Source: Psammoneis japonica (Eukaryota). From it: DNA of 64,000 nucleotides. Both the position numbers and the translations under genes were made by a program. Positions within the stretch are counted from its first letter, which is position 1. Each line of letters starts with the position of its first letter. Positions 6,449 to 30,300 of the stretch are shown piece by piece. A model generated the notes under the pieces. That model made no database searches. It was not told the DNA's origin and worked only from the letters and a program-made list of their open reading frames with translations. The stretch is from the NCBI GenBank assembly GCA_008632985.1, contig QPGO01000010.1, forward strand, positions 186,001-250,000, read 5' to 3'.

Positions 6449-7465
6449 CTTGCCAAAGTTGACAAACTCACCAAAGTTGACAAACTTGCCAAAGTCAACA
6501 AACTTGCCAAAGTCAACAAACTTGCCAAAGTCAACAAACTTGCCAAAGTCAGCAAACTTGCCAAAGTCAACAAACTCGCCAAAGTTGACAAACTTGCCAA
6601 AAGTCAACAAACTTGCCAAAAGTCAAAAAAGGTCACAAACTTGCCAAAATTGACAAACTTGCCAAAGTCAACAAAGTTGACAAACTCGCCAAAGTCAACA
6701 AACTTGCTGCAAAGTTGACAAAGTTGCCAAAGTCAACAAAAGTTGACAAACTCCCCAAAGTTGACAAGCTTGACAAAGTCGCCAAACTTGACAAAGTCGC
6801 AAAAGTTGAAGAACTTGCCAGAGTTGACAAAGTCACCAAAGTTGACAAAGTTGACAAACTCACCAAAGTTGGAGCAAAGCCAGCAATTTCACCAAGGTCG
6901 CCCAAGTTGACAAAGTCACCAAACTTGCCAAACTTTAAAAAGTTGCCAAAGTCAAGAAAAGTGACAAAGTTGGCAAAGTTGGCAAAGTTGACAAAGTCAC
7001 CAAACTCGCCAAACTTGCAAGAGTTGCCAAAGCCAGCAAAGTTGACAGGTGTGACGAAGCCCCCAAAGCCAGCAAAGCCAACAATGTTGCCAAAGCTGAC
7101 AAAGCTGCCAAAGTCAAGAATGTTGACCAAGTCAGCAAAGTTGACAAAGTTGCCAAACTTGCAAAAGTTGCCAAAGTCAGCAAAGATCACAAAGCTGCCA
7201 AACTTGGCAAGAGTTGACAAAGTCACCAAAGTCAGCAAAGTTGACAAAGTCAACAAAGTCACCAAACTTGCCAAACTTGCAAAAGTCCCTAAAGTCAGCA
7301 AAGTTGACAAAGTTGCCAAACTTGCAAAAGTTGACAAAGCCACCAAACTTGACAAGCATTGACAAGAAAGTCTCCAAACTTGACAAGAGTTGACAAAATC
7401 ACCAAAGTCAGCAAGGTTGCCAAAGTCACCACAAACTGAGCAAAATCAACAAACTTGACAAAGTC
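6449..7465. repeat. ~1-kb degenerate tandem array of 9-bp units (ttgccaaag/ttgacaaag/tcaacaaac/tcaccaaag), locally 18-bp period
   Basis: Directly visible, e.g. (aagtcaacaaacttgcca)n at ~6490-6560; gives KVDK/LTLAS low-complexity translations in several frames. Confidence 0.95.
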
Positions 7466-7967
7466 ATGTCTGCAAAATGTTTTCTCTCTCAAGCATGTGA
7501 AAAGCACTTTGTGTTGTGTTGCAACAGTGCACCCCCAAGAAACTTTTTCTGCACCTGATTTTTGTGATGCGGGGCATCGTGAGGTGTTTTATGTGGGTTG
7601 TTTGCACTTGTGGATTGGAGCATCAGCATCAAATGTTCTGTCATTTTGCATCAACAGCAACGGTGTTCTTCAATGGTTTGTGATGTTGCTTGACTTGCAG
7701 CTGGGCTTTGCACCCAAATGCCCCAAATGTTTGGCTTGATTTCAGCATTTTTGTTGTTGTTTGTTGTGTTGTGAGCACAATTGTTTGGTGCTGACACACA
7801 GTGTTGCCACCAACAAATGATGTCATTTGCACTCATCTCAACATTGCTGCTAATTCTGGCTGCCACGTGATTTCAGCGCTGCCTTGTTTTTCTCTTTTTT
7901 GTGTTGCCTTGTGTTGCCCACATTGTCCTGCCTTGTTTGTGCTGTCCTGTGCCCTTCCATTTGCATG

Positions 7968-8446
7968 TCAGCTCAGAACTTTGTGCCTCATGATCTTTCC
8001 TCTTGTTGCAGCATGCTGTTTTGAGCACGTGATTTTTTCAAATCTTCAATTTGTGTCACTCGCCGGACCTGTTTTCAGTCTCTCACCTGCCTGTGTCTTT
8101 GCAGCAGCAGGTGTTTTCACCATCAGGGACAAATTTGTTTGAGCGTTTTGGCTTTTTTGAGTCATGTGCTCTTTTCTCAATAAAAAAAGAGTTTGTCAAG
8201 TGATGGTCATTCACTGTTGCACTGTCCCACATCCTTCCATGTTTGCACCACAGCTGAGAACTTTGTGTCTCACCATCTTCCCTCTTGTTGCAGCGCACTG
8301 TTTTTTTTTTCACTGTTTTTCAAATCTTCAACTTGTGTCACTCACCAGACTTTTTTTGTGCCTCACCTGCCCATGTCTTTGCAGTGGCAGGTGTTTTCAC
8401 CTTCAGGGACAAATTTGCACAAAAATTGTGTGCTCTTTTCTCAACT
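7968..8446. repeat. Direct repeat, ~200-bp copies at ~7968-8180 and ~8250-8446
   Basis: Shared cagct.agaactttgtg...cctcttgttgcagc...ttttcaaatcttcaa.ttgtgtcactc...caggtgttttcacc.tcagggacaaatttg. Confidence 0.85.
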
Positions 8447-11400
8447 GAAAAGGGAGTTGCTTGCAGTTGTGCTGTTGATGTGCTTTCATCATCCCAGGTG
8501 GGTCAGGGGCCCACGATGTGTTCCGGCCCCAGCAGGTGATGCACAAAACAACAGCCCCTTTTGATCATGATTTAAATGAGCTTTGTGCATTGAGGCTGTT
8601 CACAAAAATGCTTGTGCATTCTGGCTTTTGTGTTTGACATGAGTGCAAACATTCAAACATTTTTTCAATGGCACCCAAGTCTTCATGGAGCACATGTCAT
8701 AAAATGTTTCTGTGGAAACAATGCTGACTGTGTGCCAGCATTCATGTTGCAGAAGTTTTTGTGTGAGCAGACTGCTGCTGTGAAATGTGCTCCAAATTTT
8801 TTCATGTTAACCTTCAAACAGTGATGGCACATTGATCCTCAAAAATTTTGGCAAAAATCATCCATTCTGTTGCAACTCATTCACCACAATGAAAAACATT
8901 GGCCACACAAAAATGACAATGTTGCAACACTGACATGAATCTTGTTGGTGTTGCCAAACATGAAAATTTGGTCAAACCTGTGCTTTTTGTGGTGAAAGCT
9001 TGTTCGCAAGTCAGAGGCTGCATGAAAATTGCACAAATGTCTTTTTTCTGCATGCTTTGGATCACGTGTGGCTGGAACATTGCACCAAGGTTGGACAATG
9101 TGTCCATCTGTCTTCTGCTGCTGTGCAAACTGCCACCCAAATGATGTCACACCCAGCGATGCTGACAATTTGTTCTTTTGAAGGTGGGATTTGCCAAAAA
9201 CAACAAAGATGCTCTTGATTTTTTTGTTGCCATCTGGGATTTGTCCCAAGGTTGCATTTCCACCCACTTGCAGCAAATCACACAACAATGAGGTGTTTGT
9301 TGTGCACCCTGTGCACAAACCTTTCAGCGCAACAAGCAACTTTTCAATGCATGCCAAAGCTTGGCTCAATCAAGAAGAACAGACACTTTTGTCATGAGCT
9401 TCTCATCCTGCTCCTTGCCATCATCAGCAAGAATGGACTTTTTTGTTGCAAGCTTTGCCCTGCTGCAGCTGCTGCTGCTGCAAGCTCCCAGCAAAAAAAG
9501 AGTGGCCACACCTGCTTTTTTTAAACTCTGCTCCGTGCAAGCCCCCAGGGAGGAGCAAGGGCTTTTTGTTGCAAGCGGTTGCCAGCATCAGCCAGCAACC
9601 TCCAGCTGCGACCCAGGCCATGCATGTGTCAGCAAACAGCCTTGTTCTGAGCTCCACCAGCTTTTGGTGTAGAGGCAGTGGTGGCACAGTGCATGGAGCC
9701 TGTGTGCGGGGTTGCTTCTTGTGGCACTGGGCTGGTGTCAAGAGGAGGCAGGAGGCACAGGCTGCTGACCATCTTGCTTGTCATGCGGTGTCATCCACAG
9801 TTGTGAGCTGCAAGAGCTTTGGTGATGCTGTTCCCACAATGGCTTGTTGTCTGCTTGTGTGCACCCCCTTTCCAATGTGGCAGCAGGCAGAGAACAAAAA
9901 AGAAAAGTGTTTTGCAGCATGTGGGGGTTGGCAGCACCAAGAGCACAGCCAAACTGTTTTGTCCACTCCTTGCCAGTTTTGAAAAGAACAAGAGAATCCT
10001 CCTGAAATCTGCAAGGACTGTCTTTGTTGCTGCACCTTGCTGCAACTTCACAAGGTGCTGCAAGATGTGACTGGACAAGCTGCTCTCTGCTGCATGAGAG
10101 ATCACCCCTGCAAAGTGGTTGGTCGCATTTTCACCATTGTGCTCTGTGCACTCCTGATCAGCTGGATGAAAATTTCAAAAGAACTCACACATCTGAACTT
10201 GCTCTCATTTTTCATTTTTTTGCATTTGTGCATCAATGTGCTTCGTTCACTTCATTGCCTCTTTGCCTTTCCATTGGCAGCTGGCACACACCACACCTCC
10301 CCCAGTCCCCCTGGAAAGAGTGCCACATCTTGTCACAAAGGTCAGCGTGAGTCATTTTTTCACAAATCTGGTTGTGTGCCAGAGACCAAAGAAGTTTTGT
10401 CAGCATGGCAAAGCCAGATGCACAGTGCATGGGTTCCTGGCAAATGAGAAACACGTCCAGAGTCCAGAGGCAATGGTTTTGTGTGCAGCTGAAAGGCCTC
10501 TTGAAAATTGTGACAGCAAAGCATTCTGGCACCAGGAGGAACCAGGAGCAATCAAATTGGCAGCAGAGCTGCTCTTGGCATGACAGAAAAACAGGCTTGC
10601 AGTTGATTGTTCAGGCAAAAAAGAGGAGAGTTGGTGGCACATTGCCCAAGAACTCTTGTTTCTCTTGTCACATGCTTTTGTGGTGCAAGACTTTCCTCTC
10701 ATTGGCTCTGCACACAATGCTTTCTTTGGCCACTGGCAAGGCCACAAATGTCATGTGTTCTTTTGACAGCTCAGATGTTCAAATTGTTGAGACCAACAGC
10801 CAAACAGATGGTTCACAAAGCCTGGCATGCTGAGTGTGAAACCACATGCTGCAATCTGCACCACCATGATGTTGTGGTCTCTGTTGCCTTCTGTTTTCCA
10901 TCTGTGGTTGTTCTTGCCAGACCCAGCAGTGAGGCAGAGTGAATGCTTCAACAGAACAAGCAAGCTGCAGAGCAAGATTTGGAAGTTGTCATTGTGATCT
11001 GCACTGGCTCAGGAAAACAATGTTGTCTCCAAGGGAGAGCTTTCAGTGGTGTGGTGGCTTCTCATGAGCTTGCTCAAAATTCACATGTCGTTGTGGGCTG
11101 GAACAATGTGTGCTGCACCCGCCATGATCTGGCACTCTCGCAGGCGGGCTTTTTTCAGGCAAACAAGGGCTCACTCAGTCATTGCTCTGCCACAGAGAAT
11201 GTGACATTTACTTTGAAAGTGTGGTGCCACCCTGATTGTCAAGAAAATCTGTGTCCCAGATCATTGTTCAGGGCAGGTGCAGATTTGCACAGTTTCTGCA
11301 GAAGTGGGTGCGCAGATTGTCAAAAAGCACAGATTTTCATCAATCATGCCAAACCCAGCATTGGGTTTTGTCAGATTTGAAGAACCCCTCCCCAGGTGGG

Positions 11401-11869
11401 CTGGAGCATTCTGCGTGCATCCTCCTGTGCACATTTGCACTGGGGCACAGATTCCAGAGATTTCCGTTCAGATTCAGAGCAGGTGGTGCAGATTTTTTCA
11501 AGCCCCCCCAAAACAGGTGCAGATTCTCATTTTCGCACTGATTTTCTGTGACAATCAGGGTGCAAGCCTCTTGGCTCAGGCACTCACGGAAGAACAGGGC
11601 CTCTGTCATGTCAGCTGCCAGCTGCACAGAGCTGCTAGAGAGTAGAGCGACAGAGGGCAAGGTCACAAATCTTCGAGAAGATTGCGATCATTCTTCCGCG
11701 CGCCATCGAGCTCTCGCTCCGGTCAAAACGTGCGCGCCATTTTCCACCGTCGGGTCATTCGCTTGATTTCGTTTCGCTTCGACGCATTCCTCATGCTTGC
11801 TGTCATATCACCGGTGCAGCGCTGACATTGTTGCTCTTGCTTTGCCCGCTCTTGTCTCTGCTTCAAAGT

Positions 11870-13330
11870 ATGAATAGCCGAATGCCCTCTACTGCTCCTG
11901 CCAACGGGTGGTCTTCGCTCCAGCCGTCATTGAATCATCATCCGCACCAACTCTACACCCGCGGCGCCAGACGGCCACAGGCACTAGTATCGCAGCAGGC
12001 ACCGCAGGAGATGACGACGGAGGAAGAATCGCTGTTCGTCCATTCGTTCATGGATTGGATAAGCAGCAAAGATCCAGCGGCTGCTTATGCGATAAGAATC
12101 TGCAGTGACCGTCGAAGCATGGAAAACTTTCTCAACCACGCCGTGTCCGGCGATGAAGAACGCGAGAATTCAGTGATTCATTTCAAAAACGGTGCTGCCA
12201 CGGCTCGGGCGTGTCTTGATGAATACAAGTGGTACTTCCAGAGGCTCAAGGATTTTGTCGAAGCCCAACAATCGGTGCTCGATCGGGCGATGCCGGAAGC
12301 AGTCGATAATGTTCGCATGACGTTGGATGAGCTGCTTGCGTTGCAGCAACACACCAAGCCTAAAGTGCTCTCCCAACAATACTTGAAGCGCAAGCTAATC
12401 AAAGATGACATTCAGCTTCACACCGTTACTTCGAATCGCTTGGCGGAGTCCATGCATCTCGGTACGTTTCAAGACATTCAAGAGCTAGATAAGTCAGAAA
12501 AGCTCGAAGTGATTTGCTTTCTATCTGCGAATAGTGTCTGTCGCGTTGACGCTGTCAAGGAAAGCATAAACTTTGCCCGAAGCATCGATGCGGTCGATGA
12601 CGAGTTCCCAATGGATCGAATATTGGGAGAAACTGGTGATAACGAAGACACTCTCGACGTGTTTATTGCCATCTACCTAGGCAAACTGCCCGATTGGGCA
12701 CGATGCTTTCGCTTTATTCGGAGGAGCGACACGGATTCATGCCAAGGTTGCTGGCTTGAAAACACCATTGCCATTGTTCATGACATCAAGGCATTTCCGA
12801 ATACCAACATGCAGCGTCTAGCTGCAGCGTCTATCGGATTTGAACCTTTCAGCACGGTGACTTCAGACCAAGCCGAAGCTTGGTTCAATCAAGAAGGACT
12901 GGCGCCTTCGTTGCAAGCCTCTGCTCCTCGCCATCACCAGCAAGGACGGACTTCTTCATTACAGGCCGCTGTTGCAAGCCTTCGGTATGGGGATTCGATT
13001 ACTTCGTTGCAAGTCGCCGCCGCCGCTGCAAACCCGCAGCAACCGGGACTTACTGGCGGTCAGGGAGCTCAACCTCAGCCCACGGTTCAGTATGGCATGC
13101 AGCCTGAGCCAGACACGATGAGCTCTCATCAAGTACCTGAGCAGGTGCTTTCGGATAATGCGGTTACTTCTGGTGATGAGAGGAGCCAGCCAGCTCTGGC
13201 TGCGACCCGTACTGTTCGCTTTGGCGGAACAACTGTGCAACTCCCGGTGATTTCTGGTGGAATGCCTGCTGCTTCAAACAGAGAAAGCAACAATCAAGAC
13301 AACGATTCCTCGTCGCAAATTTCTAGCTAG
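11870..13330 (+). CDS. Hypothetical protein (~486 aa, apparently intronless)
   Basis: Long uninterrupted ORF in normal-composition DNA (Tyr, CpG and TpA present); globular-looking middle and Q/P/S-rich tail; no family recognised. Confidence 0.7.
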   Translation: MNSRMPSTAPANGWSSLQPSLNHHPHQLYTRGARRPQALVSQQAPQEMTTEEESLFVHSFMDWISSKDPAAAYAIRICSDRRSMENFLNHAVSGDEERENSVIHFKNGAATARACLDEYKWYFQRLKDFVEAQQSVLDRAMPEAVDNVRMTLDELLALQQHTKPKVLSQQYLKRKLIKDDIQLHTVTSNRLAESMHLGTFQDIQELDKSEKLEVICFLSANSVCRVDAVKESINFARSIDAVDDEFPMDRILGETGDNEDTLDVFIAIYLGKLPDWARCFRFIRRSDTDSCQGCWLENTIAIVHDIKAFPNTNMQRLAAASIGFEPFSTVTSDQAEAWFNQEGLAPSLQASAPRHHQQGRTSSLQAAVASLRYGDSITSLQVAAAAANPQQPGLTGGQGAQPQPTVQYGMQPEPDTMSSHQVPEQVLSDNAVTSGDERSQPALAATRTVRFGGTTVQLPVISGGMPAASNRESNNQDNDSSSQISS

Positions 13331-16300
13331 CCTACTTTTGCGTCAATCGCGTGTCGTACCAGTTTCCATGGTTGACGACAAGAACTTTTGGACATTGCAT
13401 ATTCCCTTCACTACTCGCATCATACAACTATGGTGCCATAACCATACTAGCATAATCTTTGTAGAATATTTTCCTCTACGAGTAAACCAAAGGAGTCTGT
13501 ACTTGTGCATTCTATTCGATCGACTTTGGCGTCGAAACAGAAGATGTATGCTTCAGCTATGTAGTACTTTCTATCTGCTGTTTACTGTCCGAGTTTTCGA
13601 AAGGGTGTTCACTTCCCCTCAATCTAGCCGGGTATATCACACAGTATCCAACTAGCTAGAGTAGATAACCAACGATACAATCGGTCAGAACAATTGCCGA
13701 TCATGCGAAAGCATCGTCGCATAATCGCTGAGCCACATTCTCGTGAGGCAAACGTGAGGAGATTACAACGACACCAACGTACTTAGTGTTTCCATATCAT
13801 TACTTGCCAGAACGTACCGTAGGGCCCTAGGCTTCAAGAGAATGAACATGGGGACTCAAGATCAAACGAATCATTTTCAAGCTTTCCTCCCTAGATAGGA
13901 AACCGCCAAAATTACAGCTCATATCACGGTAAACGTTCGAGTATCAAAAATGGAGATCAACACACTCCAGGCTACCAAACTAAAGCTACATCTTCAGCAA
14001 TGGGTGTACGTGCACCAGCTTCCCCTGATCCCTTGACACTAGAAGTATATCGTAATTACACGACTCGCACAGTCTCAATCATAAAAGGTTTGACCCAGGA
14101 CAAAACACAGAAAAAATCGCGACCAAGGAACATATCACCATATCATAGAGGCCTCTGGTGGCTAATCTGGCTTCAAAAGACGCGTCGAGCGTTTTACCGA
14201 CACACAGCAAGGTCTTCCCTCAACCAACATGACTTTGCATGACGCATCGTCATTGCGCATCGTACGCCATAGAGTCGAATCCAACCGTCTCAGTGTATTC
14301 CCTTCGTAATCTCGCTCGCAAAGTTTCTGGGTCTGATGAACTGATGAAATGGCTCTGATCTGATGAAGTGCTAAAATCAGGTCGACAACAGTGGCAATAA
14401 AAGGTCGTATCATTGAAACCACCGTACTGTACCTAGAAATGTGGGGAGGGAGCAGGAGCGGGGCATTTTTTTTACCTGGTGTGGGCAGCAGGTTTTGATT
14501 AACTCGACTCGAGCGAAGCGAGAGGAGTCGTCATGTCACAAAAGTAACCCGGATGTTAAAGTGGGGGAGAACTGACAACTGCACAAGCAACCATTGTCAA
14601 AGGCAGCTGCACTCAAGGACAAGGAACAACATGCAAAGCAAAATGCAACATGCAGACAAGGAGCTTGTGCAGAAACAAAGTGTCCAGCCACACCAGCACC
14701 AGTGGAGGAGGCCACAAGAGGAGGCAGAGCAACACAAGGAAGCAAAAAGAGAAAAGCCACCAGAGGGGACAAGAGCCTGCACAGAGGACAGCGGCATGTG
14801 CTGTGCCTTGAAGAACCAAGTGGAAGGGGTGAACAGAATGCCAAAAAGGGGAAATTGTGAGACTCTGTTTTGGGAGCTGAAAGCAAGCAGTTGTGAGATG
14901 CTTTGCAGCACAACCCAGCAAAAGCTCGTTGCCGCCCCGGCAGGCCAGCCAAGAATCTCTGTGTGTCATCCATGGCCAAGCAGCAGCACCCTGAAAAGTG
15001 TTTCAACACCACTTTGGGGTGTGAACCAGTTGTCATTGAGAGCTGTGCCTTGCAAAAAACTGCTCCAGTGCTTGTCAGCAAATCTCCGAGCATGTGCGAA
15101 AGCACCGGAGCTTGCTGAAGATGTCTCTCTGCTTCTGTGCGCTGCTTCTGTCAAATGAGAGCACAAGCATGTGCTCCACAACCTCTTTGCAGAGCTGGGC
15201 AATTGTCTTTGCAGCTTTGGTGTTTGGTGCAGAGCTCCAAGCACAGTGCTTTTCTGTGGCACCAACAATGTCACGGGCAAGAGCAGCAATGTCCGCAGCA
15301 AAAAGCAGCTCTGCTTGTTGTGTGTTGGAGCAGCAAGCAGCCAGAGCAACAACAACAAAAAGAAAAAGATGAAAAGAGCAGAAGTTCACAGGCATGCAGC
15401 ATCTGAGGTGCCCAGAAATGATCTCCAGCATGTGCCAGCACAAGACAAGCAGCGGCAAAAGCAGGGTGAGACAACAAAGGCTTGCTTTGATGAGGATGGC
15501 ATGGGGGGCACAAAGTCAAGAAGCTGCACAGAGAGAAGCAAGCCAACTTGATGCAGTCTTGGCACCAGGTGGTGGCTCAAGAGTGCACATCATTGTGCAC
15601 AGCCACTGCTTGTGAGGCACCAGCCAAGAGCAGCAGCAGTGCTGGCCAGCTCCCAGGAGCTGCCAGAGCTCAGCCGGCCTCTTGCATTGTCAACTCAGAA
15701 CACTTGCAAAAGAAGAAACAACAACAGAGAGACAGGAAGCAAGCAACAGCTGACAACAGCAATTCTTTCTGCTTGGAATGCCATCACATTTTCTGTGTTC
15801 ACTGTCCCAGTTGCTTGCGTTAGACTGGCGACATTTGTGACACAAGATCCGTCTTCTCCGTGCACACTGATGCGGCGGTGTAAAGCTGTGCTTAACTGAC
15901 TTGATTAAAATGACAAAGGGCAATGTGTGATGACTCAAAAAAGCACCCCGTCAAGCAAGCAAAAATTTGCCTTTATCCCCACTCGGGCAAAATGTCGAAC
16001 CACTCAGTGGTTCGCAACTTGTGCAACGTGAAACTGGCGACTGACACGACAAAGTAGCACCCACACACACATGACCTTTTGACAGAGTCAAGGAAACATT
16101 GTTGCCAGTGCATCATGTTGTCAGCAACCACTTGTGTGTGAAGCACGCAATCACTCAGAGGATGACCTTCCACATCAGCATTGTCGTCATGTGCGGCATC
16201 CCACACTGTTTGACGACCTGCCAAGGAGCGGCACATTCTTGGCATTCGTCTGAAGACCAGAAAGTGTCAATCACTCTTCAATGACATCCAACGCTTCTGC

Positions 16301-16699
16301 CGCAAATGTTCATTGATTTACACTTGCATGTTCATTTTCTCAATCACGGCCCACAATTCTCAATCTCGGCCCAGCAATTCTCAATTGTGGCCCACTCTCA
16401 ATGCACTCTTCTTAATTGTTGGGCAACAACTCAAGTTCTCGCGTTTGCTTTTCCATTTTCCTCACAAATGAATTTCTGTGATGCTGCAAATGACATTGCT
16501 GCTGTCAATGCCTGCGTGCATCAAACCAAAAAGACTCACACTCGCACACTGCCCCAGCACCACTTCCACAGGACCACGATGTTTGCGCGTTCATTTTCTC
16601 ATTGCGGCCCACCAATTCTCAATTGCGGCCCACTTTCTGCTCTCAGAGCTCCTGTTCCTGTGAGCTCCGGACCACTTGGAAGTTGGGTGGCAGCCAGCA

Positions 16700-17830
16700 C
16701 AGCAATGACAGCAGACGCACTGCCTGATGACAGAAAAATGGAACTGGAAAAAAGCGGCTTTGTTTGGGATGTTTTTGAAAATCTGTGGGAGAAACAGTGT
16801 GAAAATCTGTTGCTGCACATTGCAGTTCATGGAGACAGCAAGCATTGCAACTTGTTGTGCTTCAGTTCATTTCTTCTCTTGTCACAATGATCTGAGTGTC
16901 TTTTCATTTTTCTGCGCTTTGATGGGTTCCAGTCCTGGGTGGGACTTTTTGTGACATTGGGCCCACAGAATTCTACGTGCGAGCTCCGCAGTAAAATTGT
17001 CAAGCAACAGACATGTGAATGATCACCAACAGAAAAAGAGGCAATTTTGCGAATGCATCTCCTCCTCCACACTTGAAGCACATTCTTTGCAGCATGCCCA
17101 GGTGCGTTCTTCAGACATTAAAGAGTGCACCCAGCGCATTTTTGTTGTCACAAATGCAGACAATGGAAAGCCTTTGGCTTCGCAAAACAGGCAGTGTGGA
17201 ACAATTTTTTGTCATGGAACACGTAGAAATGTGCGCGCGAAACATGCGACGGATGACAAAAAACAATTGTGTCACAATTCAGCAGTGCGAGGTCCCACCC
17301 AGAGCTGGAACATGTCCTTTGCTGGCAGCATCAGTTCCCAGTGTGGATGAGATGGGTCTTGGGCCATGGGTGTTACGACAGAGGCAGGAGAAGGACACTG
17401 TGCCTTCTGAGAGACATCAAAAGCTGGACGATGTTGGATTTGTTTGGGACATTTACGACCACCTTTGGAATGAAAAATTCCAACAGCTGTGTCAGCACCA
17501 TGAGACTCATGGAGACAGCAAGTGTCGCCATTTGTTGTGCTTTGGCCACTCTGATTTAGTTGTCTGATGTTCCACTCTGTGCACTTTGTTTTTCTGGCAT
17601 TGCAGCATTGGTTCCCACCAGGACGGTTCTTGGGTCATGGGCAAACACACAGAGGCAAAACAAGGATGGCATGTCATTGGAATGACGTGTCAAAAGCTGG
17701 AAGACATCGGGTTTGTTTGGGATGTTCTCGACTGCTCTTGGAACAAGAACTGCCAATGGCTGTGCCAGTGCTGCCAGGCTCATGGATGCAGCAAGTGTGC
17801 CATTTGTGCTTGGGCTCCAAATGTGTCGAT
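16700..17830 (+). pseudogene. Decayed gene with three helicase-associated (HA) domain repeats
   Basis: LEKSGFVWDVFENLWEKQCENLLLHIAVHGDS, QKLDDVGFVWDIYDHLWNEKFQQLCQHHETHGDS and QKLEDIGFVWDVLDCSWNKNCQWLCQCCQAHG match the HA consensus (L..lGFvW...W...y..L..y...hG); LGxWV..QR also present; broken by stops and frameshifts. Confidence 0.85.
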
Positions 17831-18079
17831 GCATGTTGTTCTCTAAAAAAGAACCAATCATTTGCTGCAAAGACCAAAGTGAAAACATGAGCAAAGGCAC
17901 AAACAACATTTGACTGTGTGCTGTGCATGCCATTGAGAAGCATGAAACATGAAGAGTGCCTTTCCGCCAAGGCGTCCCACAACACCGGTGTGTGGCATTG
18001 TGCTCGCAGGCATCACCACAATGCTTCACTTCCAAAGAAGGTTTTTTCGGAAAAACATTTTCTGACTCAGTCTTCATGC

Positions 18080-19170
18080 TTCTAAGAACCCAACCTCGTG
18101 TCTTCTCTTGTTTTGAACGCGTCTTGGAACTCATCAAGACAATTGAGAACCAATGTCCTGCCGGCTGTGTCACCATTGTTGTTGAGCAGTGCTGCAATGA
18201 CCTCAGCCGTGCACAACAGGTTTTTGCCATGGTTGCCACCGCCAAATCGATGTCACCAACCAGAACAATCCTTTCGCAAGCAACACTGGGATGGCGATTG
18301 GGACGCAATCGTGTGGCGGGGAAGTTTTTGAAGACAGTGCAACTTTCGAAACATCCCCCAAGCTTCTTGCCAAGCACCATCCAAAATGACAAAGAGGGGG
18401 GCACCAGCCTCAACAGCAGTCTTGTTGCTGTTGTGAAGGGTCGTGTTGCCAGCACCGGTCCAAACCAATGTGGGATTCATTCCTTGTCGTTCAATTTGTT
18501 TCAAATTGTTTTCAATTGTCTTTGCATCATTTTGTCCAGACCACATCCACTTGTCAACAGCAACACACTCTGACAGCAATGACTCCTGGCGTTCGTTGCA
18601 ATGCCCCTCTGCCGCTGCAAAGAACAACCGCGCTGTCGAAGTTGGTCATTTCACTTTGTTGGAATGCTGCAGCAGAGCCACTTGCATGGCAACAGTCGGC
18701 TGTTTTATTGTGTCTTTGATGAAAAGCCGCGTGTCCTGATGCTTGCATTTCATGCGTTTTGCCACAAGCTCGTGCAACCTCCACATCCATTCAGGAACAC
18801 AGTCTTTGTCATTCATGATGGAAAAGCCAGCTTTTTCGTAGAGAGGGCGCAGCCTGTTCTTGGCAAAACAAAAGCAAGAGCACACACCGCTTTGCCGCAT
18901 TTTGTGGTCATGCAAAGCTTCTTGCATCAAGAGCACTGCTGCACCTTGACGTCGGTGATTCCTTGATGCACAGAGGGACCGCAGAAACACAAAATGAGAT
19001 TTGGCTGGAGAGAGTCGGACCACTGCCACGATCAAAAAATTGTTGTCCACAAGACTGTGTGCTTCATCGCTCGCCTTTGGAGCTGGAGAGGTCACCCTCT
19101 TTTGATTCACAAAGTGCTGTTGACAAAACAAATCCAATGACTTGCGTTCATTCTCATCCACCACACTCTT
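18080..19170 (-). pseudogene. Decayed GNAT acetyltransferase + DTW-domain (tRNA aminocarboxypropyltransferase-like) fusion gene
   Basis: GNAT part: FLRSLCASRNHRRQG...CFA...LYEKAGF. DTW part: VALLQHSNKVK*PTSTARL...FVILDGAWQEA.GMFRK...LQKLPR...SQCCLRK...LCTAEV. In-frame stop and frameshift. Confidence 0.8.
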
Positions 19171-20600
19171 GAAACGACACCAACAGGTGCTGCCAACCTG
19201 AAATGCCGCCAAGGAGACTTGAAAAAATGGGCCAACAACAACAGCAGCAACTTTACATTGTTGCTTGAAGCACCACATTCCAATGCTTCCATGGCTCCAA
19301 TGACGAGCCTTCATTGCCAACCGGGGATTCTGGCTGTTGTGGGTGACCGGGATGGGCATGACAAAAAGAGAGCAGAAGCAGATGAGAGTTACAATTGACA
19401 ACGGGGAAGATGACCTGTCATTTTCAATGTTGCATCACTCAGACTCTGATCACGGCATCCCTTGCTCTTCTTTCTCTGATGGCAAGAGGATGAAAACAGC
19501 ATGCACAACACATCATCCAACATCAGGTCAGCCATGCTCGCCAAGAGAACCCACTCATTTGTCGTCTTGAGGACGCCTTCAATGAAAATAAACAGGAGCA
19601 TTGTTGTCAGGGGCAATGCCTGCGATTGCACCTGGATCGTGTCATTGACAACGACAAAGTTCACATCACACAATGGCGTCTCACATTCCTGTCTGCTTTG
19701 TGGTGTGCATTTTGAGCGCACAGCAAGAATGAGTTGACCGGCGATTGCGTCCAGTCCCTTTTGCTTGGCAGAATCATTTGGGGACATGGTGGCAAATCTG
19801 ACTTGAACAACCGCACATTGGCAAGAGACCCGGAAGACACAGCAGAGTCAGAAAGCGACCCCAACAATGGTCCAGCCAAGGGAGCAGATGCAGAGTGGGC
19901 ATCAGCAGTGTGCAAAGATGAAGCGCACTTCAGGGCTGCCTCACGCAGCTTGCCACAGTGACAACCTTGAGCAAGGAGCAACGAGATGGCATCAAGAAAG
20001 TTGCAAAGGCTGCATCAATGGAAAACAGTGCTGTGGGCAAGATCAGATCCGGGCGAATGGCCTCACCACCATGATGGAACATTCATTGTCCATGAGACTG
20101 CATGCTTTGTTGCTTGCCTTTGGAGCTGCAGAGGCCACCCTCTTTTGACCCATGAAGTGCTGTCAACAAAACAAGTTGAACAACTTGTGTTCTTTCTCAC
20201 CCACCACACACTTGAAGCACACCGGATGTGGGTCATTGTGCCAAAGTGAAATGCAGAGGACACTTGAAAAAATGGGCCAACAACAGCTGCAACTTTACAT
20301 TGTTGATTGCAGCGCCACATTTTGATGCTTCCATGGCTCCAATGAGCCTTCATCACCAGCAACCAGGGACAACAATTCTGGCTGTTGTGGGCATGACAGG
20401 GGCAGATGTGATGAAAAGAGAGCAGCGCAGAAGAGAGAGTTTTGCTGCAGAGCAGAAAGACAACCATCATTTTTGAGGTGCAATGATGTTGCATCACTCA
20501 GCCTCTGATCGTGGCATGCCTTGCTCTCTGCTCTGATTGCAAAAGGATGAAAACAGCATTGCACACCCAACATGAGTTGCATGGCATTGCCCAAGAGTGC
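19090..20600. repeat. Duplication of the 5' end and upstream region of the GNAT-DTW gene (~19090-19550 and ~20133-20600)
   Basis: Shared caccctcttttga...aagtgctgt..acaaaacaa...acttgaaaaaatgggccaacaaca...caactttacattgttg...atgcttccatggctccaatga...gttgcatcactcag.ctctgatc. Confidence 0.88.
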
Positions 20601-22769
20601 GGCTCAGCTGTGCACAATTTGCCCTGATTGTCATCAAAAATCTGCTTTGATTTCAGAATCTGTGAGAAGCTCATTTGGGGGCTGAATGAAATCTGCAAGT
20701 CATTGACCACCAAGTGGTTGGTGATTGCAGACTTTTTCATGTCGTCGGGCAGTCGGGGGGTTGGGCAGTTGGGGGGGCGGGCAGTCCATCTGAATTTGAA
20801 AGTGTGTGTCCCTGGGATTTTGGAACGGCATGGGTTGTTCAGCGCAAATGAATCATTCGATTGTCAGAATGATCATTGAGGACATTGGAGGTCATGAGGA
20901 CATCCTAAAAAATTGACAAATTCCTGCAACGGGCACGTGGAACGGTTTTTTGGGAGAGCTCGAAAGTGCTGTAAAATTGGGATTGCCGGCGTGGCATGTT
21001 GAAAACTGCACTCAGCCTAAATGAAGACAATCAATCATGAACTGCACATGAAACAGTCACATTGGGGAAAACATGTCAAACAACAAGTGTGTTTGTGCAA
21101 TGCGCTGTTGTGGCAATAAATTGGAAAAAAAAGAGTGTCTGTGCACCTTGCTGCAGCCCCAAAAATGGCGTGAGACATCAAACACAATGGTCACCCGCAT
21201 CACCGGTGCGGTGGCCACACCACTCTGCTGCCACAATGCCGGCCATGGGCACTTGTGCAGCAGGGCCCTGCGTGTGCATGAGCACAGGCAACACAGCATG
21301 CAATGGCACACACCCACACCCACAAAGAAAGACAAGTGGTCAATGCTCCCCGCAGGCCTGGCTCTGATTGACTGCTGCTGACAGCTGACTTGGCCACAAA
21401 TGCGGTTTCTGTTTGACAGATGACCTCAAGCTTCTTTTCACAGAGCACCCCAACAGACCAACCAACGTTAACCTGAGTTGAAGGCACAGATGAATTTGGG
21501 GTGACAAGAAGCCTCTGTTTGTGTCAAGGGCTCATTCATGGTGAACAAATTGATTTTGACAATCAATTGAATCAGCAAAGCAGGAAACCAGACTCAAAGA
21601 AATTTGGTGTTCTTCTTGTTGCAGTGCATGGGCTCTTGACAAGACTTGTTTTAAGCTTGACAGCATGACCGCATCAACTGCGGGCATTGGAGCATCAGCT
21701 GTCAACCAAATGAGCAAAGCAAGAAACCATCTGTGCACACAGCCAAGTTGATCTGGTGGATTGTTGCTGTGTGCTGGCTGGAGCACTCTGACAATTTCAG
21801 CTGTCCAGTTGTCATCAGCTCTGGCGCAAATGATGTGGTTTTGGTTTCTGATGATGTTTGTTGTCTGCCCTGGCAATGTTCAACATTTGGCACATGCTCT
21901 GATGCTCTTGTGCTCTTGTTCCATGCTGTCATGCTGTTGCCTTTGCTTCCTCTGTTCTTTGAGCCACCACCCATTGTTTGTTGCAGTCTGACCCACATCT
22001 TGGTGTTTGTGTTCCAATCTTTCACATTTCAAAGAGAGTCAGTTTTTGTGACAGCTTTTCATTGCAAGACATGAAAGCAAAATCCTTGGAAGAAAACAGC
22101 AGAGAAGTTGTCAGTTTGGCTTTTTTTTCAAGCATGGCACAATGCTGCTGTTTCTGCTTGCCTGTGTGCAGTGGTGCAGCACTTTGTTTCTCATCCTTGG
22201 CCATTTTTGCCAACTTGTCCAAGTTTCAAGGGGGGGGGGGGGGATGAAAGAAAAGCATCAGTTTGTTGTTGTTTGCTCTGCATTGCCTGCGCCTGCTGCA
22301 CCACACTTCAGACCTCTTGCATTTCCCATGGCATTTCTTTGCTGGCATGTGCAGAGTCCTGGGTGTTGTTGGTGCCTTCCTGTGCAGTGTCATCATTGTG
22401 CACTGCTTGGCTGCATCCTGTGTTTTTGTGTTGTTTTGTGTGGTGGTGGATGTGCCATTTTGCCACAGAACAAAGCTGGCCAGCCTGGTGATCACTGCAC
22501 TGCCTGTGTCATTTTGCAAGTTGTGGCTCTTTTTGACAAGAGCCATGTTTGTTGATTTTGATTGCCAAAGCATTTTGTTCATGAACTCTCATTTGATTGG
22601 CAGCTGGGTGTTGAGCATTGTTTCAATCACACGCGCAGCACATTTCCAAAGAAGCTCCATGTCTCAGTTTTTGTGATCTCAACCAGCTCTTGTTCAGAAT
22701 GAAATTTTCAGATTTGTGCTGGTCTGTGCAGTTTGTTGGTGTCATTGTGCATGTGTGGATTCACAAATG

Positions 22770-25700
22770 CACAATGGCACCAACCAACTCAACAGCTGCA
22801 AGCCAAGGACACTGGCAGCATCTGGCAGGCTGCACAGCCATCACTTTGAGAGCTGTTGTTGGGAGTTGCAAGGTTGATCTTGTGATGGTGTGCTCCCATG
22901 TTGCCTTGTCCCCAACAGCAGCAGACTTGACTTTTTCCCAGCTCCAGCCAGAGTGAGAAGATCTCATGACAGTGCCTGCCAACCCAACAACTGCCAGCTG
23001 GGCACCAGGGGAGGGGGGGCTCCAAGAACTGCGGTTGGGTGTTGCAAGGTTGGTCTTGTGATGTTGTGGCCCTGTGTCACCTTGTCCTCATTAGAAGCAA
23101 CTCTTGCAGAGATCTCATTGTGGTGCTGACCAACCCAACAAGTGCTGGCAGAGGACTCTGGTGGCCTTTGCTGGACCCCAGGCAACACTTTGAGAACTGT
23201 GGTTGGCAGACATTGCATGGTTGATGTTGCAGTGATGTGGCCCATGTCTTGTCCTCAACAGCAGCTGACTTGAACTTCCAAACTCCAGAGTGAAAAGACC
23301 CCATGGCAGCACTGGCTTGGCTGCAAGCTGAGGGCACCAACAGTGTCCAGTGCACCCCAGATGTTTCTTTGAGCACTGTGGCTGAGCACTTCAAGGTCAA
23401 TCTTGTGGCTCTGTGGCCCCATGTCACATTGTCCCCAGCCAAAAACAGCAGCAGGCTTGACTTTCCCAGCTTCAGTGCCAGACTCCAGAGAGCAGGGATC
23501 CCACAACAGTGCCAGCCAGCCCAACAACTGCACTCGGAGGATGCTGGCGGTGTCTGGTGGACATCAGGGGACAATTTAAGAACCATGGGGCCAAGTGCTG
23601 CAAGGTTCATCTTGTGGCATTGTGGCTGCATGCGTGTCATGTCCAAAACAGCAGCAGACTTGGGCTTCCACCAAAGCAACTCCAGAGTAAAGTGGCGCCA
23701 ACCAAGTGGGCAACAGCGTGCTGAGGAGACATTGACAGTGTCTGGTGGACCCCAAGCAATGCTTTGAGAACTGTGGTTGAGCACTGCAAGGTTGATCCAG
23801 TGATGTTGTGGCACCATGTCACCTTGTCCCCACAACAGCAGCAGCAGACTTTACTTTCCCAGCTCCAGTGTGAAGGGATCCCATGACAGTGCCAGCCAAC
23901 CCAACAACTGCCAGCAGAGCACGCTGGTGGTCTCTGCTGAGCCCCAGGGGCAGCACTCTAAGAACAATGGTTGGGCATTGCAAGGTGGATCTTGTGGCAC
24001 TGAGGTTCCATGTCACCTTTCCCCAACAGAAGCAGACTCACTTGAAGCCCAGCTTCCAAACTCCAGGGTGCAGAGATCCCACTGTGGTGCCAACCAACCC
24101 AACAACTGCTGGCAGAGCATGCTGGCAGTCTTTGGTGAACCCCAGGTGACATTTTCAGAACTGTGGCTGGCAGACATTGCAAGGTTGATGTTGTGGTGTT
24201 GTGGTCCATGTCACCTTGTCCCCAAAACAGCAGACTTGACTTTCCCAGCTCCAGAGTGAAGGGATCCCATGACAGTGCCAGCCAGCCCAACAACCAACAA
24301 CTGCTGCCAGCAAAGCATGCTGGTGGTCTCCGCTGGGACCCAGGAGGGGGGGGGGGGGGGGCACTCCAAGAACTGTGGTTGGGCATTGCAAGGTTGATCT
24401 TGCAGTGTTGTGGCCCCATGTCATCTTGTCCCCAACAGAAGCAGACTTGGACTTCCAAACTGGTGCCAACCAGCCCAACAACTGCCAGCAGAGGACACTG
24501 AATCCAGGGCAAGACTTCAAAACTGTTGTTGGGCATTGCAAAGTTGATCTTGTGGCATTGTGGCCCCAGAATGTCACGCTGCATCCAACAGCAGCAGACA
24601 CAAACTTCCAAACAAGTGACAGGACCCCATGGCAGTGCCATCCAACCTGACAACAGCAAGCTGAGCAGTGTCTGGTAGACCCCAAGCAACACTTTGAGAA
24701 CTGTGGCTGATGATTGCAAGGTTTGTCTTGAAGTGTTGTGGCCCCATGTCACCTTGTTCCTGTCAGCAGCAGACTTGAATTTCCAAACTCCAGAGTGAAG
24801 GGACTCCAACATGATGGCACCAACTGACCTGACAGCCACAGACTGAGGGCACTGACAGTGTCTGATGGACCCCAGGCAACACTTCAAAAACTGTGGTTGA
24901 GCATTGAATGGCCAATTCTGTGGTGTTGTGACCCCCTGTCACCTCATCCTCAACAGCATGGCAGACTTGCCTTTCCCAGCTTTGGAGAACAGCAATCCCA
25001 TGACAGCGCCAACCAACCCAACAACTGCCCAGCAGAGCACACTGGCAGTCTCTGGTGGGCCCCAGGGGATGCTCCAAGAACAGTGATTGGGCATTGAAAG
25101 GTTGATCTTGTTGCCTTGTGGCCCCACCATGTCACCTTGTCCCTGACAGGAGAAGACTTGAGCTTCCAAGATCTAGAGTGAAAGGATTGTTCAATGGTGC
25201 CAAATGACCCATCAACTGCTGGCCAAGGGCACTGGCAGTGTCTGGTGGAGCCAGGGCAAGACCACAAAACCTGTTGTTCTTGGGCATTGAAAGGTTGATC
25301 TTGTGGCATTGTGGCCCCACAATGTCATGTTGTGTCCAACAGCAGCAGGTTTGAACTTCCAAACTCCAGAGTGAAAAGGACACCATGACAATGTCAGCCA
25401 ACCTGCCAGCAGCAAGCTGGGGACACTGGAGATGCCTGGTGGACCCCAGGCAACACTTTGAGAACTGTGGCCAAGCATTGCAAGGTTGATCTTTTGGTGT
25501 TGGGGCCCCATGTCACCTTGTTCCTGCCAGCAGCAGACTTGAACTTCCAAGCTCCAGATTGAAAGAACTCCATGATGGCACCAACTGAGCATTGGGGGTC
25601 TTTGGTGGACCCCAGGTGAGCCTTTAAGACCTGTTGTTGGGCACTGAAAGGTTCACCTTGAAGTGTTGTGGCCCCATGTCCTGTCACACCCAACAGCAGC

Positions 25701-25910
25701 AGACTTGGACTTCTGCCAAGCTCCAGTGTGAAACGACCCCCATGACAGTGCCAACCAACCTGTCGTCAGCAAGCTGAGGACACTGGCAGTGTCTGGTGGA
25801 CCCCAGATGACATGTCGAGAGCTGCAACTGAGCATTGCAAGTGCTGTTGTGGCCCCATGCTGTCACCTTGTCCACAACAGGAGCAGACTTGAACTTCCAA
25901 ACTTCTGAGT
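22770..25910. repeat. Satellite array, ~17 diverged copies of a ~185-bp unit
   Basis: The marker gcagacttg (or a variant) recurs 17 times between ~22921 and ~25883. Core: gggcattgcaaggttgatcttgtggcattgtggccccatgtcaccttgtccccaacagcagcagacttgaacttccaaactccagagtga...ggtggaccccaggcaacactttgagaactgtg. Confidence 0.93.
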
Positions 25911-26269
25911 TGCTTGTTCAAAGGTTTGGTTGCTGAGTGGCAGTGGGCGAGGAGAGCAAAGCTTCAAAGAGCAATCCAATGGGATTGCCAGAAATGCAGA
26001 GTTGTTTTGCAGTGGCAAAATGGCTTGAGGAGGAGAGCAGAGAAATTTGCACCAGCAGCATTTTTGAAACAAGTTTCTCTTCATTCAAGCCATCCTCCAT
26101 TTCATCCTGGTCTAAAGTTCAAGCAAGAGTGGATCTTGTGGGAGGGTTGGTTGGGTTGCAAGTCAGAAATGCAAGCTGAGCTTTGTTGACTGGTGAGTGC
26201 CACACAATTTTTGAAGCTTCCTTCCATGGTTGATGATGCAGTTGTTGCAGGCATCAATCATCCATGCTG

Positions 26270-27310
26270 ACCACATGCTGCTGACACTTGGAAAAGCATG
26301 GCATTCAAACAACCCTCTGCAATCTTCTACAAGGGGCAAAACTGGTGCCCTCACAGAGCAACAAGGAAGAGCTGCACAGACAGTGGACATGATTTTGTGT
26401 TTGCTGGCTGAGGTCCACTGCTGCAGCTGAAACAGAGTGCAGTGTGCAAGCACCATGGACCGAGATGTGAGCTCAAATTGCAGCCATGTTGGCTCCAGTG
26501 ACCTGGCACACCAAAAAGTGTTTGTGGCATGTTTGTTGTCAATTGACAGCTTCAAAGTGGTGTTGAAGAATGAAGTGCAGATTTAGATTGACCCATGATG
26601 CAATCTGGGTTGATGTTGGAGTTTGTCAAATTGTGGTGTGACAATGAGGCTGAGTTGGTTGATGAGCATTTCTTGTGGCAATGGGAAGCACAAATGAGAA
26701 CATGGATCAAATGACAGCTTGGCAATTGTGGGAATTGCTGCTTGACATTGTGGGTTGGGCTCTGGAGTGCAAATTGACATTCTTTGAAAGAAGGAAATGA
26801 CTCAAGTCTCAATGTCAAACAAGTTTTCTGTTGCCAAAGCCTTGTTTGCAACCACCACTCTCATGCAGTCTGGGTCCTGGAGTCAGGTGCATGGAAAACA
26901 CTCATCCTTTTTTCTCCAAAACAAGCAAGCTGGTGTGCTGACACTTGGACAAGCACAGCATCCAAACAACCCTCTGCAATTCTCTGCTGGGGGCAAAAGT
27001 GGTGCCCTCACAGAGGAACAAGGAAGAGCTGCACACACAGTTGTCAATTGACAGCTTCAAAGTGGCATTGAATGAAGTGAAGAATTAGACTGACCCGTGC
27101 TGAAATCTGGGTTGAAGTTGGAATTTTTGTCAAATTGTGATGTGATGATGAGGTTGAGTTGGTTGATGAGCATTTGCAGCAACACAGGAAGCATGATCAA
27201 CAACATGGATTGAATGACACATGACCATTGTGGGACCTGCTGACATTGTGAATTGGGCTCTGGAGTGCAAATTGGCACTCTTTGGCAGAAGGAAATGACT
27301 CAAGTTTGCA
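26270..27310. repeat. Tandem duplication (~26270-26820 and ~26930-27310, second copy with an internal deletion)
   Basis: Shared caaacaaccctctgcaat...ggggcaaaa.tggtgccctcacagag.aacaaggaagagctgcaca and gttgtcaattgacagcttcaaagtgg...gagttggttgatgagcattt...gggctctggagtgcaaattg. Confidence 0.88.
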
Positions 27311-30300
27311 GCTGGTGCATTGTTTCTTGTCACAAGGGAGCTGGGAGGTGGTTGTTCAATGAGAAGTTCATTTTGAAAGGAGAGCAGCTTCATTGTTCTC
27401 AGTCATGCAATGAGCACACAGCAGATTTCAACAAGGCAGGGTGTGCAATTGTCACATGCAAACAATCTGGATTGGTGGTGACTGCTTTGTGTGGTGCTCA
27501 ATGCAACAAAGAGCCAAGTGCAGCTGCAACACAAAAAAATGGGCAGTTGCGCTGAAGCTCTTCCACGCAAATGAGCTGGCTCTGAGCAAGATGCTGGGTC
27601 ACAAAACAAAACATTGCAAATCCATGACCATTGAAAAAACAATTTCAGCCTTGAATGACAACTTTGCCAATGACAGATTTGTGGCTGAAAATGAGTCAGT
27701 GTCAGAACATCATTCAGAGCCAGTTGCAGCAACAACCTTGCTTGATTTTTGAAAATTGTGACACCTCTGGAGAGTGCAATCACAGGTGCAAATGTTTTGA
27801 TTCATGTCAATGGTCTTCTTGTTGAGAGCAAGCAGACAGATGGTTTCCAGGTGCGCCACTGATTTCACACTGCAAACACTGGCAACTCCACCAGAACTGA
27901 CAAAAACTGGTCTGGCACAAACCAAGAACAATTGAGTTTTGTGCGCCATTGTGAAGGAGTTTGGTTTTGAAAACTGCTGAAAATGGATGGCTTCCTTCTC
28001 TTGCTGCTGTCAGGGGGCATGAGAAAAGCAAGAGTGTTGCAAGAAGCAAGGCAGAGGCACAAGGAAAAAGCCACCTTTTGAAGAGACGTCTTCAATTAAA
28101 ACATGAGTTTGCTGTTCAACACTGTCTTCTTTTGTGAGTGGCTGCATTTTTGTGCTAAATGCAAATGTCATTGCTCAAGCATGTGGTGCATGACTGTCTC
28201 ACTCATTGAAAACCATGTCATGCCTTGCATGTTTGTTGGATCAAACACTTTCAAAAGATCAAGAGGTGATGTGGGGGGCACATGTGGGCAGAGCTGCTGT
28301 CCAAAGAAATTCTGCCTCAACGACAGTGCATTTGAAGGCTTTGCCAGTTGTTGGAACACCTTGATCATGGGAGCCACAAAGGACCCAGGTGCATTGAAAA
28401 AAAGACACTTTGGCTCCTGACATGGTTCAATGGGTGACTCACAATGAGAAAAGCCTTGCTGTCACCAATCTCTCACTTTTGTTTTTCATCTCACTCTTTG
28501 GAGTGAATCATTTGGTTTGGTGTGTGATTTGTCATTCGGTGTCAGCAGGTGCCTGCCATCACACAAGTTCACAGTTTGTGCCAATGCCCTCAGCAACCCA
28601 CCACAGCTGTTGCAGTTTTCCAAGAAAGTGGCAAGTGTGAGGATGAGCAGCACAGGAAGCCCAACAGGATCCCCTTTTGTGATGTTGACTTGCTGGCTCA
28701 ACAAATCAACCTTCATGCACACAAAAAGATGTGAAGTTGTTTGCCCAGCAATCTGCCAGCAAGTTTGATGACTGAGAAAACTTCAAGTGTGCTGATTGAC
28801 AGACATTTTCAACAGTGCACAAATTTCACACAAGATTCTTAGACAGCAGCTGACCAGATGCCCCCCCCCAATGTTGTTTGTTGGCTGGTTGATGGGTCAG
28901 TTTTTCTGTTTTTACACAAGCATTTGGCGCTTGTTGCCCTCATCTAAAACCATGGGCGCATGTGACACAGCTCTCCCCAGCCCTCTCTGGTGCACCACTT
29001 CACATTGGCCTTCTCTGCAAGCAAGATGTTCTCCGCCAAATTCACCTTTGATGGACTGGTCATGCTGGGGTTGGCTTGTGGTTTGATTTGCTTTTCACGT
29101 CACTTTCTCCATGTCTGGCCCAATTGATGAAGAACCCAGCAGCCAGTGGCTGGACATTCTGCAAGAAGAAAGCATGGAAGCAGAGCCAAGGCTGGAAGCG
29201 GTGGCAAGAATGGCAACCATGTGCCTGCAAATTGTGCTGAAACTTGTGCTGCATTCTTTGTGTCTGTCAGATTTTTGTCATTTGCATTTGCCCATTTGCT
29301 CAAAAGCAAGAGAGCACCACATGAGCTGTGGTGCACTGCTTCACAGCCAAAAACCATTTCAAAAGAACAATCTCATCATTTTGATGTCTTCTGGCATTGT
29401 CCTTGCTTTTGTCTGTTGCAGGAAGCAAGAAGGTGAGGTTGCTTGAAAAACATTGTTTTTGTCAATGCCATTTCTTGGAGGTGCCCCAACAAAATTTCTT
29501 TGTCCATCACATGCAGCAACCACAACAGAGCTGGGTGGGACATGTCATGCTCTGGTGTTTGTAAAATCAGACCATGTGATTTGAGTTGCTGACTTCACAC
29601 CTTGTGGGCGCTGGTCAAGAGTGCAGAGAACATCTTGCCACTCTGCCGAGCCACTTGCTGTGGCTCAAATTGATGCTGGGCAACAATCTGAGGAGGTTCA
29701 AAACCATGTGTGGTGCTGTTTCTTGCCATCACTCTGAAGTGGTCTCTGCATGTTTGAGCCACTCATGTGAGCAAACAACCAACAACCCACTGACCCAGCC
29801 TTTTGCCTGCCCAAGTGCCCTGAAATGATGGGAGAGATGGAATGATGTGACCACCAGCGGGGCTCTTGTGCAACATGTCAACAACAAAGAGTGCAAAATC
29901 TTGTTGTGTTGAAAAAAAAACAGCACTCCTGTTGTGCTTCATGACATGAACCCCTCCCACCACACTTGGAAGGTCAGTTTGTGCTTGTTTGCGCCACACA
30001 CTTGTTGCCAAATTCTCCAATGGAGCAGCCACCAGCTGCCATTCATTGCAGCCACCCACCAGGCATGCATCCTTGGCTCAGCAGGCAAGCATGCAAGTGC
30101 ATGAGAGAGGTCTCTGAGTGATCTGCTTTCTTTCTCTCCCTCTTTTCCTTTTGGAGTGGCAAGAGCCAGACTGCCCCCGCCGGAGCTGAAAAAACTCTGG
30201 ACACTTGCAAAGTGGTTTTCCACCATCTGATCCACAGCCTGTGGCATGGCAGCATGGCTCTGCCCTCCTCTCCACACTTCAAGCCAGGCATGCCTGGGAG

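Follow-up and report, generated by a model that had tools for sequence, protein, structure and literature searches.

The window analysed here, a 64 kb stretch of DNA, carries on its forward strand (16649-17796) three HA-domain (PF03457) repeats, one repeat in each of three exon-like units. Unit 1 (16649-16837, 189 nt, phase 1), unit 2 (17329-17517, 189 nt), which is the best preserved, and unit 3 (17606-17790, 185 nt), which is broken, are separated on the same strand by two intron-like spacers. Spacer 1 (16838-17328, 491 nt) starts with GCAAGC and spacer 2 (17518-17605, 88 nt) with GCAAGT; both end in CAG, and a third donor-like GCAAGT (17791-17796, forward strand) lies 3′ of unit 3. Each unit is preceded by a pyrimidine run and AG and followed by GCAAG[CT], the intron starts are homologous, and phase 1 is found at entry to and exit from all three units. 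The acceptor AG of unit 1 (16647-16648) was picked so that the phase is kept, and we infer its position on that basis. The original prediction of an HA locus at 16700-17830 holds except at its left edge, as the first HA exon begins at about 16649 and not at 16700.

The open reading frame containing unit 2 matches the Pfam HA model with 36.0 bits (E = 8.9e-9), above the PF03457 gathering cut-off of 28.4 bits; unit 1 scores 14.2 bits, under that cut-off, and unit 3 has no Pfam match. A family HMM built in this analysis scores the units at 79.6, 37.1 and 25.1 + 8.6 bits. To define the family we searched unit 2 against 1.84 billion representative proteins (E ≤ 0.001), which yielded 7041 matches, and extracted 1292 HA repeats from the best 150 of these 7041 (28-50% identity) for column frequencies; all family percentages below are for this best-150 set. 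The HA proteins among these best 150 matches carry 3-22 repeats each, and the nearest intact repeats in them reach at most 39-55% identity. A word-index protein search with unit 2 (E ≤ 0.001) returned no match. Among Atlas clusters, the nearest is an HA cluster of mainly eukaryotic proteins in which Bacillariophyta are the commonest phylum; we take this as a lead to a diatom origin of the window, which is probable.

The locus resembles PF03457 HA proteins in its repeat of about 62 residues with L10, W13, QR17-18, L32, GF36-37, W39, W46, L53 and HG60-61. When tested for the near-invariant residues L10, W13, Q17, R18, L32, G36, F37, W39, W46, L53 and G61, unit 2 keeps 11/11, unit 1 keeps 9/11, and unit 3 keeps 11/11 but over two frames. 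It differs from those proteins in having three units only, in being broken, and in carrying Cys or His on an aromatic column.

Read in the frame that units 1 and 2 set, unit 3 runs through ...LGSWANTQRQNKDGMSLE into a TGA stop (17683-17685). This codon falls on family column 28, where 59% of repeats have Arg (best 150 of 7041 matches). After this stop comes a 2-nt insertion at about 17686-17690 (CGTGT, for CAT in unit 2), and the two extra nucleotides place the remainder of unit 3 in another frame. Unit 1 reads S and T at Q17 and R18, columns that are 83% Q and 96% R in the repeats of the best 150 matches. A double frameshift in unit 1, by which the other frame (SQHSND) would resemble the family TQRQNKD, was tried and had no HMM support. 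The stop and frameshift of unit 3, the loss of Q17 and R18 from unit 1 and the restriction to three units bear out the pseudogene claim of the original prediction. Disabling lesions occur here together with retained introns of 491 and 88 nt, and because the introns are kept the relic is classed as an unprocessed fragment.

Could the locus instead be a live, fast-evolving HA gene with functional Cys and His (e.g., a new metal site) and GC-AG introns in DNA of odd composition? Units 1 and 2 are open, in phase and 189 nt each, unit 2 passes Pfam, and GC-AG introns are a minor class in many eukaryotes, but such a gene would have to tolerate the TGA and frame shift of unit 3 and do without Q17 and R18 in unit 1. 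It would also have no start: we could recognise neither a first exon nor another domain at the locus, and found no further HA exon beyond the three units in six frames of the whole 64 kb (family HMM). His and Cys are nearly absent from family column 56 in the best 150 matches, which speaks against a functional role for them. With hardly any TAA or TAG left in the surrounding block, the openness of units 1 and 2 is uninformative either way and lends a live gene little weight. We regard a live gene as very unlikely, and 16649-17796 as very probably a dead, unprocessed HA-repeat gene fragment in a repeat-rich block, its codons appearing to record the loss of TpA and CpG by transition.

Spacer 1 contains a MITE-like insert (16926-17311) with 20-nt inverted ends (16926-16945 and 17292-17311) that are 90% complementary. 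The insert holds 4 of the 7 TpA and 14 of the 26 CpG of the HA region and lies in a bin (16812-17475) with a depth of 72183 in X1, a public sequencing run described below; as it keeps relatively more TpA and CpG than its surroundings, it may be a later insertion. Upstream of unit 1, a repeated GGCCCAC..AATTCTCAAT motif occurs at 16324-16399 and 16583-16637, and a related sequence, GCCCACAGAATTCT, is found at 16961 in spacer 1.

The relic is embedded in a block of about 16 kb (~14500-30600) purged of TpA and CpG, with a TpA o/e of ~0.05 (0.00-0.10 per kb over 15001-30000), which is mostly multi-copy in X1. Another purged block spans ~5000-11500 (TpA o/e 0.00-0.06 over 5001-11000). CpG o/e per kb is 0.02-0.62 in both blocks, and the rest of the window has a TpA o/e of 0.41-1.0 and a CpG o/e of ~1. 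In the HA region (16700-17830) there are 7 TpA (o/e 0.089) and 26 CpG (o/e 0.42). Per kb, the blocks contain 2.9 TA, 11.8 CG, 113.5 TG and 113.6 CA, compared with 42.2 TA, 56.7 CG, 67.4 TG and 74.6 CA in normal DNA, G+C being 0.481 in each. The loss of TA and CG (84 per kb) is thus balanced by the gain of TG and CA (85 per kb), strand-symmetrically and with G+C the same. The two losses are separable, as TpA o/e is 0.04-0.09 and CpG o/e 0.22-0.62 at 15-21 kb, with both ≤0.13 at 22-30 kb.

Surviving TpA steps in the blocks are mostly in a TTA/TAA context (55/63, versus 609/1672 outside), and both TpA left in the HA exons are of this kind (TTA context, TTACGAC each). No RTAY context is left in the blocks, and across 5000-11300 and 14700-30300 the words ATAT, GTAC, ATAC, GTAT, ATAG and CTAT all have a count of zero; CpG survives best in GCGC, GCGG and CCGG. 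Splice donor words follow the same pattern: the blocks contain a single GTAAG, compared with 43 in normal DNA, GCAAG is enriched 2.6-fold in the blocks (6.7 versus 2.6 per kb in normal DNA), and introns in the normal part of the window start with GTAAG or GTAGT. The block has 96 TAA and TAG words versus 1074 TGA, and with TAA and TAG nearly gone the long ORFs there mean nothing. Among 134 block ORFs, Pfam matches were limited to HA, DTW, GNAT and a weak DUF7101, with no transposase or reverse transcriptase.

Several other features of the blocks were observed. On the reverse strand at 18256-19434, a GNAT ORF (Pfam E = 5.5e-7) and a DTW ORF (E = 1.8e-10) share one frame with a TGA (18646-18648) between them; this locus in the purged block is probably another decayed gene. 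A word-index search with the GNAT-like ORF (E ≤ 0.001) found no homologue. A direct duplication pairs 19043-19507 with 20086-20565 at 75% nucleotide and 86% purine/pyrimidine identity. The block at ~5000-11500 contains, at 6450-7464, an array of 9-nt period (TTGACAAAG, ~98 copies), with periods of 27 and 36 nt as well and long KVDKLAK-like ORFs on both strands.

The HA codons allow the direction of mutation to be read against the family. According to the original prediction, Cys and His stand in the relic where HA repeats usually carry Tyr, as products of transitions at TpA, and Trp stands for Arg. The strings it drew on are all present: WEKQCENLLLHIAVHG in unit 1, LCQHHETHG and DIYD in unit 2, and WNKNCQWLCQCCQAHG in unit 3; the codons also agree with those it had deduced. 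Column 56, before the HG motif, is Y in 58%, F in 39%, H in 1.2% and C in 0.3% of family repeats (n = 1126; best 150 of 7041 matches). Y or F, present in 97.4% of these 1126 repeats, is absent from all three units, whose codons are CAC (16816-16818), CAC (17496-17498) and TGC (17769) on the forward strand. We read H/H/C at this column as decay and not as non-membership of the HA family; the CAC shared by units 1 and 2 may go back to a single inherited change. The original prediction had asked whether intact paralogues already carry Cys or His at such sites. They do not at the family level, the only level looked at, because the 100 repeats nearest each unit have H at column 56 in 0 and C in 1 (best 150 of 7041 matches).

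Column 50 (F 61%, Y 17%, C 1.1% in the best 150 matches) is TGT in unit 1 (16798-16800), TTC in unit 2 and TGC in unit 3 (17751). Since F is commoner than Y in this column, Cys here is ambiguous and need not derive from Tyr. One Tyr survives, in DIYD, as the prediction noted; it is encoded by TAC (17453-17455) within ATTTACGAC.

Column 52, which is R in 12% of the best-150 repeats, is CAG in unit 2 (17484-17486) and TGG in unit 3 (17757). CGG would be the ancestor here, since, TAG being a stop, no other sense codon could yield both CAG and TGG through a single change at a self-complementary dinucleotide; this is in agreement with the change from CGG to TGG that had been proposed for QWL. The codons of column 57 (K 49%, R 13%, H 10%; best 150 of 7041), CAT in unit 2 and TGC in unit 3 (17772), fit an ancestral CGY, and column 14 (V 71% in the same set) is GCA in unit 3 (17641), consistent with GTA to GCA. 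These ancestral codons are reconstructed from the family profile and not from a parent gene.

Residue counts over the 164 aligned positions depart from family expectation. There are 7 Cys where 0.75 are expected, a number reached in 0 of 20000 simulations, and 8 His where 3.6 are expected (P = 0.02). Tyr is found once (4.3 expected, P = 0.04) and Arg 5 times (13.9 expected, P = 0.0008), and 4 of the 5 Arg codons left in the HA units are AGR. In a reversion test, which undid TG and CA and scored the fit to the family, the pre-set gain of >1 bit was obtained for 23/142 reversions and for 23/187 control transitions (P = 0.20; Mann-Whitney P = 0.57); the two were separated only at a post hoc 2-bit threshold (18/142 and 6/187).

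Between the HA units, discordance of CA in one unit with TG in another at homologous sites is found in 25/89 cases (28%), whereas other double transitions give 17/225 (7.6%). The raw count of CA/TG pairs (25) does not exceed that of a shifted control of matched composition (19.7, sd 4.0, max 31), so that the discordance fraction alone stands out. A tandem array in the same block (22767-25910, ~17-18 copies of a ~190-nt unit, ~66% nucleotide and ~80% purine/pyrimidine identity) gives a similar picture: 15/37 pyrimidine-purine columns have both CA and TG among copies, and discordance is 647/3806 (17.0%) versus 514/9290 (5.5%) for other double transitions, with no excess in the raw count (647 versus 554, sd 134, in the shifted control). 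A small test found no strand coordination of CA/TG choices (96/192 versus 103, sd 5), which favours site-by-site events over processive single-strand tracts.

A purged copy can also be compared with a source-like stretch inside the window. An intact ORF of 563 codons, with no Pfam match, contains 12822-12967, and a purged copy of this stretch lies 3.5 kb upstream (9297-9454, forward strand). At each of the 8 CpG of the intact copy, the purged copy has TG (5) or CA (3), and at 1 of the 2 TpA it has TG. The pair differs by 40 transitions versus 9 transversions. Only 10 of the 40 transitions are at CpG or TpA of the intact copy, which means that the process also acts elsewhere or that the two copies diverged long ago.

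We compared the window with 4359 word-based contigs of X1, the one public run containing the stretch. Word depth in X1 is 200-72000 over most of the block with the HA relic versus 59-78 in normal DNA; by bins, it is 75-72183 across 14156-28763 and 59-78 outside. The right end of the block (28764-30755) has a depth of 61-65, that of single-copy DNA, yet is purged (TpA o/e 0.01-0.19). Either the purge spreads beyond repeats, or copies of this part have diverged beyond the 85% limit.

Differences between the X1 contigs and the window comprise 171 A>G, 165 T>C, 151 C>T and 165 G>A, with 21-40 transversions per type. Among the 40 differences listed (there are 832 further ones), 30 are interchanges of CG or TA with TG or CA. 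In these 40, the window has TG or CA where the read has CG in 15 and CA where the read has TA in 2; CA is set against TG in 6 (3 sites); the window has CG where the read has TG or CA in 4, and TA where the read has TG or CA in 3. At 16843, in spacer 1, sister contigs have a T that makes TA. Some sister copies thus preserve CG or TA at sites that read TG or CA in the window, which implies that the copies decayed independently from CG and TA. Together with the family columns, the CA/TG discordance, the GCAAG donors and the mass balance, these sister copies support the direction that the original prediction had given, from TpA and CpG to TpG and CpA.

X1 may be the window's own sample, for which reason it is no independent proof of the sequence. 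This leaves some room for a sequencing or assembly artefact, in which modified bases were miscalled and TA and CG read as TG and CA. The word-based contigs of X1 do, however, repeat the purged sequence (in one case 1503 nt over 28490-29990 with 3 letters differing), and 571 of its contigs are ≥99% alike. Miscalls on two strands would be expected to leave mixtures with CG and TA, unlike the clean purge and equal TG and CA counts of the block, and frameshifts, a TGA and diverged paralogous copies are not expected from miscalls at all. We consider an artefact most improbable.

Nor is it at all likely that the block was never normal DNA, being of foreign (e.g., viral) origin or under selection against TA and CG words, with its codons a result of avoidance. 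Many viruses and mRNAs avoid CpG and UpA, according to the available portion of PMC3829696, and the borders of the block are sharp. Avoidance is at odds, however, with damaging non-synonymous changes at conserved columns, one of them a stop, and with the CG and TA kept by sister copies in X1. A purged copy adjoins an intact parent-like ORF, the loss of TA and CG equals the gain of TG and CA at the G+C of normal DNA, and introns, the MITE-like insert and arrays are purged along with coding sequence. Decay of once-normal DNA remains our preferred reading.

RIP changes C:G to T:A only, mostly CpA to TpA; it is premeiotic and needs a RID-type methyltransferase. By contrast, A>G (171) and T>C (165) are as common in X1 as C>T (151) and G>A (165). 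The block resembles RIP products in consisting mostly of repeated DNA, in its transitions in a dinucleotide context, its sharp borders and its stop-bearing gene relic. In the accessible parts of PMC2621366 and PMC3017866, RIP of ascomycete fungi is described as repeat-linked, with transitions at fixed dinucleotides, sharp borders, stops, the killing of genes and relics that reveal their parents. The same portion of PMC2621366 has fungal RIP creating TpA and lowering G+C, whereas in the block TpA falls from 42.2 to 2.9 per kb through A:T to G:C changes, CpA and TpG become more frequent and G+C stays the same. Diatoms possess DNMT4 enzymes related to the RIP factor RID, of unknown function in the part of PMC9998398 available.

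Deamination of 5-methylcytosine at CpG is established chemistry, and CpG decay by this route leaves TpA untouched. The block shares with such decay, known from vertebrates, plants and diatom transposons, the change of CpG to TpG and CpA on both strands within silenced or repeated DNA, as seen in 8/8 CpG of the pair and in the 11.8 versus 56.7 CG per kb of blocks and normal DNA. It differs in that TpA loss in the HA region is more complete than CpG loss (o/e 0.09 versus 0.42). A-to-I deaminases (ADAR, ADAT/TadA) prefer a 5′ U/T, cause a net A to G change and act on RNA. The block is like their products in showing A to G beside a 5′ T, and unlike them in that the change is heritable, in DNA, on both strands and limited to blocks.

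In our preferred reading, block-limited, strand-symmetric transitions have probably turned nearly all TpA and most CpG into TpG and CpA. In the relic this would have converted Tyr TAY to His CAY or Cys TGY, Arg CGN to Trp TGG, Gln CAG, Cys, His or the stop TGA, and Val GTA to Ala GCA, and splice donors from GTAAG to GCAAG. The CpG part could be explained by 5-methylcytosine deamination in silenced repeats; repeats of diatoms are methylated, in the available text of PMC9998398. The TpA part would call for a further process, distinct from deamination at CpG, that attacks A or T within TpA of double-stranded DNA site by site; as its agent, a base modification or a deaminase is our best guess.

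In the literature outside subscription journals we came across no account of TpA and CpG being purged together from repeats, and block-limited joint loss of the two steps is apparently undescribed. It is possible, if somewhat less than probable, that a mutagenic process not yet described, limited to repeats or heterochromatin, hits both self-complementary pyrimidine-purine steps, TpA (with A:T to G:C changes) and CpG. Its agent might be a modification of A or T in TpA, or a deaminase serving as genome defence, with TTA and TAA contexts spared. If so, the repeats, by then nearly free of TA, would lose TAA and TAG stops, GTAAG donors and TATA-like and AATAAA-like signals at one stroke.

The relic itself is an ordinary pseudogene, and its worth is as a witness to an unusual loss of TpA and CpG. 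Because a recognisable gene family supplies the ancestral residues, it dates and directs the change of composition, making the odd composition of the block a dated, directional event. For annotation it carries a warning: long open frames and GC-AG introns in purged blocks result from the purge itself and do not indicate genes. Should a real, enzymatic process lie behind the destruction of TpA, fungal RIP would be joined by another type of repeat-directed hypermutation, one with the opposite effect on TpA. It would then operate in major marine primary producers that have RID-like DNMT4 enzymes, whose function is given as unknown in the accessible part of PMC9998398.
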